A DNA stretch of 64,000 bases. It comes from Capsulimonadaceae bacterium. GTDB lineage: Bacteria; Armatimonadota; Armatimonadia; Armatimonadales; Capsulimonadaceae. The DNA lies in contig OZ244065.1 of NCBI GenBank assembly GCA_965215505.1, forward strand, positions 5,600,001 through 5,664,000. Reading direction: 5' to 3'. This document shows, one piece after another, positions 58,870-64,000 of this stretch. The translations under genes and the position numbers were made by a program. How positions within the stretch are numbered: the first letter of the stretch is position 1; the number at the start of each line of letters is the position of its first letter. Under the pieces are notes generated by a model. It did not search any database. It was not told the origin of the DNA and worked only from the letters and a program-made list of their open reading frames with translations.

Positions 58870-59031
58870 GGAGCATCTATCAGCGTATGCACGCGCCTCC
58901 GAAAGCGAAAGACGACGGCTCAGACCCGAATCAGCCGTGTATGCTTGATTATCCGCGTCCCTTTCTGTTTCTCCTCTCTAGCCTCTTTGGCTTCGGTCGG
59001 TTATAGCGCCACTGAGAAAGCCACTACTTCC

Positions 59032-61821
59032 ATGTATCTTCGCTCCCTCCTCATCCTCTCTGCCCTCTTCCTCCTGTTCGGCAACATAGCCGCAAGGGCG
59101 CAGGAGACCCAGACCCAGTACCTCTCCGGCCATGACAAGGACGATGCCGTGTTGTGGGACTTCTACAGTACCGCCGGGCGCAACGCGAACCAGTGGACCA
59201 AGATCAAAGTACCCTCGAACTGGGAGCTACAGGGGTTCGGTCGGTTCACCTACCAGACCGGCCCGCCCGCAGGCGAGGCGCAGGTCGAGGGGCGCTACAA
59301 GCGGACGTTCTCGGTGCCTGAGTCCTGGTCGGCCAAGCGCGTGTTCCTGACGTTCGAAGGCGTCATGACCGACACGTCGGTGCAGGTCAACGGCCAGTCT
59401 GCCGGGCCGATGCACCAGGGCGGGTACTATCGCTTCCAGTATGAAGTCACGAAGCTGCTCAAGTTCGGCCAGGACAACCTGCTGGAAGTGACGGTGGATG
59501 AGGAATCCGCCAACGCTTCCATCAACAACGCCGAGCGCCGGGCCGATTACTGGAACTATGCCGGCATCTACCGGCCCGTCCTGCTGGAAGCCGTCCCGAC
59601 CACCTACATCCAGCGCACCGCCATCAACGCGAAGGCCGACGGCAGCCTTGCCGTGGACGTCTACGGGAACGGCACCATCCCCGGCGATACCGTCGAGGCC
59701 CAGGTCATGGACCTCAAAGGCACCCCCGTCGGTCAGCCGTTCTTACAGTCCCTCTCCGCAGGCCCGGAACCTACCCGACTGCAAACCCAGTTCGCGGCCC
59801 CTCGCTTGTGGACTGCGGAGACGCCGAACCTCTATCAGATCGAGGTGCGCCTGAAACGCGGCGTGACGGTCCTGCACTCGCTCCGGCAGCGGTTCGGCTT
59901 CCGGACCATCGAGCTGCGGCCCGGCGACGGTATCTACGTCAACGGTCGGCGCGTCATCCTGAAAGGCAGCAACCGGCACTCGTTCTGGCCGGACTCGGGG
60001 CGCTGCACCAGCGAAAAGATCAGCCGGATGGACATCGGGCTGATGAAGGACATGAACATGAACGCCGTGCGGATGTCCCACTATCCGCCCGACCAGCATT
60101 TTCTGGACGACTGCGACGAGATGGGCCTCTACGTCCTGGATGAGCTGGGCGGCTGGCAGCACACCTATGACACCCCCACGGGTCACCGGCTCGTCGGCGA
60201 GATGGTGGTGCGGGATGTGAACCACCCCTCTATCCTGTTCTGGGACAACGCCAACGAGGGCGGCTGGAACAAGGCCCTGGACGATGATTTCGCGCTCTGG
60301 GACCCGCAGCAGCGCCACGTCCAGCACCCCGGCGGGGGCCTCTTCCGCGACGTTGATGATCCCCACTACCCCGACTATGCCCGCACCCAGCAACTAGCCG
60401 CCGGTGCCAACGTCTACATGCCGACGGAGTTCCTGCACGGGATCTATGACGGCGGGGCGGGGGCGGGCCTGGCCGATTATTGGGACGCCATGCGCTTGAG
60501 CAAGGTCCTGGGCGGCGGCTTCATCTGGGCCTTCCTGGATGAGGACGTCAAGCGCGTGGACCTCGACGGCCATCTGGACAGCCACGGCAGCAACGCGCCG
60601 GACGGCATCGTCGGCCCCTACCGAGAGAAAGAGGGCAGCTATTACACGATCAAAGAGGTCTGGTCGCCCATCGTGCTTGAGGAAGGCCGCCTCAGTCAGT
60701 TGCCGTCGGTATTCGACGGAACGCTGACGGTCGAGAATCGCTACGACTTCCTGGACGCGCGGCAGTGCCGGTTCACCTGGCAGCTACGCAAGTTCGGGCG
60801 TCCGGGTGCGGCCGGGGGGGCCTTCTCCGTCCTGGCGCAAGGGGTGGGGAAGCTGGCTTCTTCAGTCCCGCCTGGAGGCAGTGGGGCGCTCACTCTGGGC
60901 CTGCCGCGAACATGGCGGCAGGCGGAGGCGCTGGCGGTGCGGGTGGACGATCCCACCGGGCACACCCTCTATACTTGGGTCTGGCCGCTCCCGCACGCAT
61001 CGGACTATCGGGCCATCACCGGCACACCGGGAGACACGAGAACGACGGTTTCGGAAACCGCTGACGCGATCCAGGTCCGCAGCGGCGCTCTTGTGGCGAC
61101 GTTCAGCAAACAGAACGGCCGGCTTTTGTCGGTGGAGCGGGGAGGCAAGCCGTTCTCGCTGAGAAACGGCCCGCGCCCGGCTGCCGGTGAGGCCACCCTG
61201 GCGAACATCGAACACCACGCGGAAGGACCGGACACGGTCATCAGCGCCACCTACACCGGGAACATGAAAACGGTCCGCTGGCGCATGAAGAGCAATGGCT
61301 GGCTGCAACTGGACTACGACTACGCGCTCGAAGGTCCGCAGGACCTCTTCGGCGTCAGTTTCGATTATCCCGAGGCGGACGTCAAGGCGATGACATGGCT
61401 TGGGAAGGGGCCGTATCACGTCTGGAAGAACCGGGTGGAAGGCACGACGCTGGGCGTCTGGTCCAACACCTACAACGACACGATCACCGGGGATGCGGTC
61501 TGGAAGTACCCCGAGTTCAAGGGCTACTTCGGCGGCGTCCGCTGGGCACAGCTCCAGACCACTGAGGGACCGATCACGGCCGTCATGGGCCAGGATGACC
61601 TCTTCCTTCAGGTGTTCACCCCGAAGTTCCCGACGAATCGGGAGTCCCGTTATACGTCCCCTGCGTTTCCCATCGCAGGCTTGTCATTCCTCCATGCCAT
61701 CCCGCCGATCGGCAGCAAGTTCACCCCCGCCGCCCGGAGCGGCCCGCAGGGGGAGCCTGCCGTCGCCACGGGTTCGTATCACGGCACGGTCAGTTTCTAC
61801 TTCGGCGGGCTGCCCAAGTGA
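59032..61821 (+). CDS. Secreted glycoside hydrolase family 2 (beta-galactosidase-like)
   Basis: Signal peptide; FEGV, GIYRPV, LWTAETPNLY, FGFR, NAVRMSHYP, NHPSILFW..NE, TEFLH. Confidence 0.93.
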   Translation: MYLRSLLILSALFLLFGNIAARAQETQTQYLSGHDKDDAVLWDFYSTAGRNANQWTKIKVPSNWELQGFGRFTYQTGPPAGEAQVEGRYKRTFSVPESWSAKRVFLTFEGVMTDTSVQVNGQSAGPMHQGGYYRFQYEVTKLLKFGQDNLLEVTVDEESANASINNAERRADYWNYAGIYRPVLLEAVPTTYIQRTAINAKADGSLAVDVYGNGTIPGDTVEAQVMDLKGTPVGQPFLQSLSAGPEPTRLQTQFAAPRLWTAETPNLYQIEVRLKRGVTVLHSLRQRFGFRTIELRPGDGIYVNGRRVILKGSNRHSFWPDSGRCTSEKISRMDIGLMKDMNMNAVRMSHYPPDQHFLDDCDEMGLYVLDELGGWQHTYDTPTGHRLVGEMVVRDVNHPSILFWDNANEGGWNKALDDDFALWDPQQRHVQHPGGGLFRDVDDPHYPDYARTQQLAAGANVYMPTEFLHGIYDGGAGAGLADYWDAMRLSKVLGGGFIWAFLDEDVKRVDLDGHLDSHGSNAPDGIVGPYREKEGSYYTIKEVWSPIVLEEGRLSQLPSVFDGTLTVENRYDFLDARQCRFTWQLRKFGRPGAAGGAFSVLAQGVGKLASSVPPGGSGALTLGLPRTWRQAEALAVRVDDPTGHTLYTWVWPLPHASDYRAITGTPGDTRTTVSETADAIQVRSGALVATFSKQNGRLLSVERGGKPFSLRNGPRPAAGEATLANIEHHAEGPDTVISATYTGNMKTVRWRMKSNGWLQLDYDYALEGPQDLFGVSFDYPEADVKAMTWLGKGPYHVWKNRVEGTTLGVWSNTYNDTITGDAVWKYPEFKGYFGGVRWAQLQTTEGPITAVMGQDDLFLQVFTPKFPTNRESRYTSPAFPIAGLSFLHAIPPIGSKFTPAARSGPQGEPAVATGSYHGTVSFYFGGLPK

Positions 61822-62252
61822 CGCGACTGACCGAGGTCGCGGAGCGCGTCAACACGGGAGCGGATGACCCGGAAACGTCCCGCGCCCTGGTCGTTTTCAA
61901 CCAGGCCGACCTGCCGGTGAGCGGCGTCGCCGTCTTCCGGGCCGCCATGTCCTGGCCGCGCGCCCTGCCCCTGCCACCGGTCGTGGTCACGGACGACGGG
62001 CAAGCCGTCGCTTCCGCCGTCTGTGACCGGGCCGAAGCGCCGGACCTGAAAGGCCGTACCGACCGCTGCCTCCTGTCCTTCTCCCTCTGCTTCGCCGTCT
62101 CCGATGTTCCCGCGAACGGCTGGCGCACTTACATCGCCGCCTACACGGACGCGCCCGCCCCCCCGCTCGGCGATTTTGTGGAGACTCCCGGCCTCGTTGT
62201 GGTAGAAACAACGAGGCACGGCGGCGACCTGCCGCCAGTAGGAAACTTTTGA
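61818..62252 (+). CDS. Hypothetical protein resembling a GH38 beta-sandwich segment
   Basis: LVVFN...F.V.DVPANGWRTY; GTGA overlap with the GH2 gene. Confidence 0.55.
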   Translation: MTRLTEVAERVNTGADDPETSRALVVFNQADLPVSGVAVFRAAMSWPRALPLPPVVVTDDGQAVASAVCDRAEAPDLKGRTDRCLLSFSLCFAVSDVPANGWRTYIAAYTDAPAPPLGDFVETPGLVVVETTRHGGDLPPVGNF

Positions 62253-62286
62253 TGCCGCCGCCGCGTTTATATGCTATACTGAAACG

Positions 62287-62619
62287 ATGTTCCTGCAAAC
62301 GCTGGTCCAACTCAATATCCTGATTCTGGCGACCCCCGCGCTGGCCGGCTGGACCCTGATGCCGCTCACCCAGCCGGGCGCGGTGCGGGCCGCCTGCGTC
62401 GTCTGGCAGGGCCGGACGGTCGAGGCGGTCGCGCCCAAATCGGAGCAGGTAGAGGTGGCGAAGACTCGGCAGGCGGCGCGTCCGCAGCCGCTCATCCTGC
62501 CGCGCTTTGTGTCGCCGAGCGCGGCTAGGCCAGCACATCAGGCCCTCGCATTCTTTGTCGCCCCGACGGTAGCCCCCGCCTCGTTTAATCCCTTCCCCCA
62601 TGCCACCCGCGCCCCCTGA
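62287..62619 (+). CDS. Candidate SecM-like translation-arrest leader peptide
   Basis: TGcTATACT 6 nt before the ATG; hydrophobic N-terminus; ends CGC GCC CCC TGA (RAP*); directly upstream of secA. Confidence 0.6.
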   Translation: MFLQTLVQLNILILATPALAGWTLMPLTQPGAVRAACVVWQGRTVEAVAPKSEQVEVAKTRQAARPQPLILPRFVSPSAARPAHQALAFFVAPTVAPASFNPFPHATRAP

Positions 62620-62662
62620 GATCGCCCCCTGGCCCCCAATTCTGGGGGGATCGGAGGACGCT

Positions 62663-62687
62663 GTAGGGGCGAACCTTGTGTTCGCCC
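62663..62687 (+). repeat. GTAG-type REP-like palindrome
   Basis: GTAGGGGCGAAC-cttgt-GTTCGCCC; preceded by hairpin CCCCCAATTCTGGGGG (62633-62648). Confidence 0.7.
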
Positions 62688-62758
62688 TCATGACCTGGCT
62701 CCTTACCTAGACCTTTGTGAGCTGGGCCATCTTGTGTGAGAGGCAATCACTAACAACC

Positions 62759-64000
<1,242 letters not shown>

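Follow-up and report, generated by a model that had tools for sequence, protein, structure and literature searches.

The systems closest to the locus analysed here are described in Fujiwara 2024 (PMC10987492, cited throughout from the parts available to us). In E. coli SecM and in ApdA/ApdP, a monitor is encoded upstream of a Sec gene and a hairpin that masks the SD sequence lies under the stalled ribosome (PMC10987492 and the available parts of PMC7897499). The secA table of PMC10987492 contains the group uA_RQH_Armatimonadales with three rows, all from the Armatimonadaceae and all with a RAPP motif, and the available text does not name the group among the peptides tested. For uA_RQH_Fimbriimonadales (RDGP), which also belongs to the Armatimonadota and has an equally uncharged signal, stalling was reported in vitro and in vivo. 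Peptides that end in NSP-stop or NAP-stop before secA or secDF stall with the stop codon in the A site, and positions -3 and -1 are needed. The yidC table of the same source has 14 whole-word RAP matches, of which the two rows listed are ApcA with RAP-stop, and its script code covers RAP-stop and RGP-stop before secDF. A spacer of >30 residues is required of Sec/YidC monitoring substrates, and the majority of the RAPP-like motifs that occur in ordinary proteins cause no stalling (PMC10987492). A planctomycete group in the same source has RAPA, RAPG or RAPS and not RAP-stop. RAPP arrest needs a Pro in the A site and is lost when that Pro is changed (PMC10951233, available parts). LudP and DGMK-stop show that related motifs can be adapted to arrest either elongation or termination (bioRxiv 10.64898/2026.10.26.761930, available parts), which gives a switch from elongation to termination arrest a precedent.

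The upstream open reading frame (uORF) before secA in the Capsulimonadaceae would follow the same logic as SecM and ApdA/ApdP. It shares the order, the position before secA and the layout of putative signal, spacer and RAP with uA_RQH_Armatimonadales but is shorter (93-111 aa vs 127-177 aa) and always has a stop codon at the fourth position, where the published group has RAPP. A basic n-region is present in 18/18 sister-family peptides and in 0/36 Capsulimonadaceae signals, and no similarity to that homology group was detected beyond the motif. With NSP-stop/NAP-stop the uORF shares a putative signal, a spacer, a terminal x-[AS]-P that the stop codon immediately follows, and a place upstream of a Sec gene; those peptides, compared here by motif alone, come from a different phylum and have Asn at position -3, whereas the Capsulimonadaceae uORF has Arg. 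The terminal RAP-stop itself is shared with ApcA (yidC, Streptosporangiales) and with the RAP-stop/RGP-stop peptides before secDF (Rhodothermales, UBA7662), which are computational assignments, concern other target genes and phyla and are minority variants there (PMC10987492). The earlier note on this DNA had seen no similarity to SecM beyond the motif, and this was borne out: the uORF matches neither PF06558 nor FxxxxWIxxxxGIRAGP, and a profile search detected no SecM domain in this genome.

The reading frame upstream of secA

The window is the whole stretch of 64,000 nucleotides that was analysed, and the features between 61818 and 64000, the repeats aside, lie on its plus strand. A 110-aa uORF (62287-62619) ends FNPFPHATRAP-TGA, and 139 nt separate it from the secA ATG at 62759, as the earlier note had it. 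Judged by its motifs and by the sister-family rows in the available part of PMC10987492, the gene that begins at 62759 is secA; its 5' part (62759-64000) lies in the window and the whole gene encodes 1036 aa. The uORF is single-copy in this genome, has a third-position GC of 0.82 and is, like the monitoring substrates of PMC10987492, a small unannotated reading frame directly upstream of secA. Its usual upstream neighbour is a 144-aa ORF (61818-62252) that is probably outside the proposed switch, with tblastn matches in 23 Capsulimonadaceae loci and in none of the sister-family or other secA loci compared. Neither the uORF nor this neighbour gave a Pfam or NCBIfam match at the cut-off. Further upstream (58945-61821) lies an ordinary secreted glycoside hydrolase family 2 gene, beta-galactosidase-like.

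The first 22 residues (62287-62352) form a signal-like segment that contains no K, R, D or E and carries A-L-A at residues 18-20, in agreement with the uncharged hydrophobic N-terminus noticed previously. The best 15-residue hydropathy of the peptide is 1.89 (residues 6-20). An AlphaFold model based on the alignment gave a confident N-terminal helix over residues 2-24 and an unfolded C-terminal half with no folded domain (pTM 0.25). At the putative cleavage site, A-L-A followed by G-W is found in 28/36 copies. No copy has a basic n-region before the hydrophobic stretch (36/36 without) and a median of 2 basic residues occurs in the following 30, so the topology of the signal is uncertain. A variable Pro/Ala-rich linker follows; the spacer between signal and arrest site measures 68-95 residues in the 36 aligned copies, which exceeds the 30 residues required in PMC10987492 and is close to the 71 of the short SecM class. 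The Arg-Ala-Pro codons and the stop (62608-62619) constitute the predicted stall site, where Pro-tRNA would occupy the P site and the stop codon the A site.

A second small ORF with a terminal RAPP was seen in this genome outside the window (L190:466-816; G000:C1:5541265-5541615). It encodes 116 aa with a signal-like start and a CxxC motif, lies directly before genes for a TonB-dependent receptor, ExbB, ExbD and a TonB-like protein, and resembles the CruR-type RAPP uORFs mentioned in the discussion of PMC10987492.

Conservation of the RAP-stop terminus

The search within the class covered two families, with 39 Capsulimonadaceae genomes (this one included) and 32 genomes of the sister family. 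The DNA upstream of secA was examined in all 39 Capsulimonadaceae genomes, and a counterpart uORF was identified in 38/39; in the remaining genome the contig has only 95 nt upstream of secA, leaving 38 informative loci. Each of these ends in RAP-stop (38/38), which is the outcome of the comparison with relatives that the earlier note had proposed and provides the C-terminal conservation among homologues by which PMC10987492 recognises monitoring substrates. RAP*, one of the query motifs of PMC10987492, thus occurs in more than two uORFs of an order, as in the definition of an RQH motif given there. The distance from the uORF stop to secA is 86-293 nt (median 125.5, 38 loci), and the frame was maintained across many indels. 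One uORF (L132) has a divergent start. In another locus (L033, genome G032) the uORF is split over two frames, with the signal-like part in one and RAP-stop in the other, which reflects either an assembly error or a pseudogene.

Five residues are invariant in the 36 aligned uORF proteins (Q8, P17, R108, A109, and P110). Within the genus, the share of codon pairs that differ non-synonymously is 0.11 for residues 1-22, 0.51 for residues 23-45, 0.69 for residues 46-100 and 0.39 for residues 101-107; residues 23-45 retain some similarity within the genus and the linker diverges fast. The RAP codons show no non-synonymous difference in 759 codon pairs and 55% synonymous differences. All three stop codons are used after RAP (TAG 21, TAA 9, and TGA 8 in the 38 loci), and a SecA tree of 29 rows implies nine changes of the stop codon, none of them to a sense codon. 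The Arg codon of RAP is CGG in none of the 38 loci; such a bias was considered as proof of selection on the RNA and rejected, since CGG is also absent from 3/22 invariant Arg columns of SecA.

Beyond the family loci, RAP stands at the C-terminus of 96/99 database homologues, and the members of the homologue cluster are named Capsulimonas corticalis, Capsulimonas sp. or Capsulimonadaceae bacterium. A single record (P0083) is labelled as a Janthinobacterium MAG, yet its protein matches the family uORF and the label is probably wrong. The background is low, with RAP-stop at the end of 15/15,624 long reading frames of this genome, so that its occurrence before secA in 38/38 family loci and in 96/99 homologues exceeds chance. 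In a control set of 69 distant secA loci with full flanks, no RAP-stop uORF was found (0/69). The family profile matched 12/13 family genomes, and among 251 genomes only four marginal places elsewhere.

Of the 32 Armatimonadaceae genomes 30 were examined (one had no secA match and one was cut at secA), and RAPP or RGPP was found at the same place before secA in 30/30 loci and RAP-stop in none. A first filter identified 28 of these loci by a signal-bearing uORF that ends in RAPP or RGPP plus 1-5 residues; the two remaining loci also have RAPP, in one case followed by a longer tail and in the other within an assembly that is full of frameshifts. Three of these uORFs are identical to rows published in PMC10987492. 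Among 40 loci from the best-scoring other families of the phylum, three of them truncated, a signal combined with RAPP was found in two and RAP-stop in none (0/40). Homology between the uORFs of the two families was not detected by hhalign (probability 0.2%) or by HMM comparison (best E 0.018), and the Capsulimonadaceae profile matched 0/12 sister-family genomes; position and phylogeny make descent of RAP-stop from RAPP plausible. In G155, G220 and other genomes of families f5 and f16, open frames of ~2,200-2,600 aa that contain SecA, twice the usual length, were observed and are possibly fusions or inteins.

Transcript, spacer and predicted pairing with the secA SD

A promoter is predicted at 62249-62280. 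The extended -10 element TGCTATACT (62272-62280) lies 6 nt 5' of the uORF ATG, where the earlier note had placed it, and 20 nt from a -35-like TTGATG (62249-62254) that overlaps the stop codon of the 144-aa ORF. A generic promoter scan did not call the uORF promoter. An extended -10 precedes the uORF in 32/32 loci with a canonical start (6-8 nt from the ATG in 27, 18-21 nt in 5), with TTGAC(A/T) at 17-19 nt in most loci, and an SD-like word precedes the uORF in only 1/32. A leaderless message is the simplest reading of this arrangement, which suggests, as far as sequence goes, that the uORF-secA transcript is leaderless or nearly so. The promoter of its own for secA that would speak against control by the uORF was not seen, as the last 60 nt of the uORF and the spacer contain no promoter-like site in any locus (0/38).

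The spacer is a patchwork of repeats whose 3' end retains the motif GYGC-GARAGG-CA. In this genome it contains a 16-nt palindromic repeat (62633-62648, 11 exact genome copies) and a 26-nt hairpin repeat (62663-62688, 62 exact genome copies), both of which we take to be REP-like and which lengthen the distance between uORF and secA, as had been noticed. Across genomes (loci L001-L037 and this one), at least three unrelated families of REP-like repeats have entered the stretch from the stop to the SD motif and left both of its ends intact. An SD-type hexamer is present in 32/38 loci at 7-15 nt before the secA ATG; in this genome it is GAGAGG at 62738-62743, 15 nt before the ATG, a spacing that the earlier note had recorded as a caveat. 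The hexamer is complementary to the ...CCTCCTTTCT end of the 16S gene of this genome, the distal end of the anti-SD. Pairing at this distal end of a 16S terminus that is itself predicted would make the effective spacing shorter and ease the caveat.

Two local pairings had been proposed to cover this SD. The hairpin of 62692-62701 with 62719-62728 (spanning 62692-62728) does form in folds (pair 62725:62695, P 0.86-0.92) but is specific to this genome and not conserved in relatives. The pairing of CTCAT with GTGAG depends on the fold window (P 0.89 vs 0.07 or less), does not change when a ribosome footprint is placed at the stop and involves a sequence not common to relatives. A local anti-SD hairpin was consequently rejected as the switch, being neither conserved nor sensitive to the footprint.

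A long-range helix is the better candidate. Its predicted 5' arm (62601-62622) comprises the His-Ala-x-Arg-Ala codons and the stop region, and its 3' arm (62729-62745) contains the conserved GYGC-GARAGG-CA motif that holds the SD. Complementarity to the His-Ala-x-Arg-Ala codons lies in the flanks of this motif, with seven core pairs in 22-23/23 genomes of the genus and 88.8% of cells paired vs 17-57% in slid controls. The native tail masks the SD more than a shuffled tail does in 21/23 genus genomes. Removal of the part covered by the ribosome lowers the opening energy of the RBS by >1 kcal/mol in 18/23, and a footprint at the stop eases opening in 17/23, as compared with 5 and 2 for control footprints. 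The non-coding arms fit each other better when both come from one genome than when they come from two (-4.9 vs -2.9 kcal/mol, 19/23, 0/5000 permutations), but this difference is inflated by inverted ends that derive from repeats and by the kinship of the genomes. In the coding arm, covariation does not exceed that of shuffles (56-253/500 reach the observed values), RNAalifold on 26 spacers did not find the long-range helix, and Rfam gave no match. In a comparison with synonymous resampling, the duplex energy of the tail was better than the mean in only 22/38 loci and in the top decile in 9/38, which is a weak signal. In this genome the helix is present in some fold windows only and a footprint has little or no effect (8.0 to 8.6 in one calculation, 8.7 to 7.8 in another); in the other 15 family genomes the footprint effect occurs in 5-6/15 and the matching of the arms is at chance. 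The last codons and the stop region are thus predicted to pair with the secA SD motif over a long range in the 23 genomes of the genus, with weak support in this genome and in other genera. In the genus of L029, L031 and L131 the architecture is unlike that of this genus, as the predicted pairing of the uORF tail falls immediately upstream of the SD, which itself lies in a small hairpin with a GAAA loop.

Proposed mechanism and alternative explanations

The main reading, to which we assign a probability of roughly 0.68, is that the uORF encodes a secretion monitor whose stall at termination exposes the secA SD. Stalling, export sensing and control of secA are steps that we infer. The uORF and secA would be carried by one leaderless transcript, and a ribosome would stall on the uORF with Pro-tRNA occupying the P site and the stop codon in the A site while the N-terminal signal, which is ~80-90 residues back and has left the tunnel, engages Sec. 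A pull on the nascent peptide by active SecA/SecYEG would end the stall. When export lags, the ribosome would stay on the final codons and the region of the stop, which would otherwise close the long hairpin over the secA SD, and the freed SD would yield more SecA; the pairing behind this step is a prediction that is strongest in the own genus. What the earlier note had claimed as a lineage-specific Sec monitor tuning secA stands in its layout of signal, spacer and RAP-stop, invariant in 38/38 loci, and falls in its choice of the local hairpin as the switch. The codon after RAP, which encodes Pro or Gly in RAPP elongation arrest, is a stop in 38/38 loci. The RAPP mechanism needs an A-site Pro, so RAP-stop must work differently, closer to NSP-stop/NAP-stop, and by the same structural argument RAP alone may stall weakly.

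Two of the alternatives retain the stall and change what it reads or controls. TnaC is the comparison case for a stall at a stop codon that blocks Rho loading. A similar transcriptional output before secA, in which a ribosome stalled at the stop codon would keep Rho from loading or prevent a terminator-like hairpin within the spacer of 86-293 nt, would fit the presence of Rho in the genome, the C-rich first 40 nt after the uORF stop in many loci and the hairpin followed by 3-6 T in 8 nt that precedes the SD motif in 27/32. We regard it as improbable, because no terminator-like site was called in the spacer of this genome, the T-tract pairs with the stop region in folds and it is with the SD itself that the coding tail has its conserved pairing. 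About equally improbable is an arrest peptide whose uncharged N-terminus inserts head-first as an anchor and senses membrane insertion (SecYEG/YidC, SRP route) instead of SecA-driven export. The lack of basic residues before the hydrophobic stretch in all 36 copies, their presence behind it and the modelled helix over residues 2-24 are what one would expect of an anchor, but A-x-A followed by G-W in most copies, polar Q/N residues within the helix and a long variable spacer typical of Sec monitors point to export, similarly uncharged Fimbriimonadales signals are classed as signal peptides by SignalP-6 in the available part of PMC10987492, and the gene that would be controlled is secA.

The other two alternatives dispense with a regulated stall. 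Any ribosome finishing the uORF would open the hairpin by translational coupling, with RAP-stop as a relic or a fixed pause; a C-terminal Pro slows release in general (PMC7246954, available parts) and there is no A-site Pro, on which RAPP peptides depend. Plain coupling nevertheless leaves two observations unexplained, the invariant Arg and Ala with free synonymous change and the conserved signal at a kept distance, and is in our view slightly less probable than a transcriptional output or an insertion sensor. The least probable explanation, and a very unlikely one, is a small exported or membrane protein with a function of its own in which the C-terminal RAP is a binding or degradation signal. 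The similarity retained in residues 23-45 within the genus and the entry as a hypothetical protein in public records agree with it; against it, there is no folded domain, the linker diverges fast, the frame is always directly before secA and RAP stands at the place of the published RAPP motif in the sister family.

The secretion monitor stalling at termination allows a more specific scenario, which is tentative and for which we consider the odds to be somewhat unfavourable. The Capsulimonadaceae would have converted an ancestral RAPP elongation-arrest monitor to termination arrest by a fixed stop codon, RAP-tRNA would block both release factors (all three stop codons are used) by a chemistry distinct from the mechanism with an A-site Pro, and leaderless control of secA would be exerted via a hairpin that tolerates repeat insertions of 100-200 nt.

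The novelty is smaller than the earlier note had claimed, as the available parts of PMC10987492 already report both the RAPP uORFs of secA in the sister family and arrest peptides that precede secA and end in Pro-stop. The candidate novelties, read from sequence, are the family-wide RAP-stop before secA, the leaderless transcript and the long-range hairpin, within a known class of regulator. In the available secA table of PMC10987492, no row is from Capsulimonas or the Capsulimonadaceae and RAP is absent as a whole-word motif, although C. corticalis is in the genome list. The RefSeq model of the C. corticalis uORF lacks the signal, which is a possible reason for this absence; two public annotations start too late, so that the signal is lost, or too early. 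No description of the Capsulimonadaceae RAP-stop uORF was found in the literature searched, which lay mostly outside subscription journals.

The RAP-stop uORF extends current knowledge and does not overturn it. The late and early start calls on the C. corticalis copy show how such monitors get overlooked, and this species is a cultured carrier of the uORF. The RAPP mechanism is solved and depends on the incoming Pro, and a RAP-stop allele that occurs naturally throughout a family raises the question of whether this P-site motif can jam release factors as well. If the conversion scenario is true, the two sister families would be a natural experiment on how a single motif changes from preventing peptide-bond formation to preventing release.
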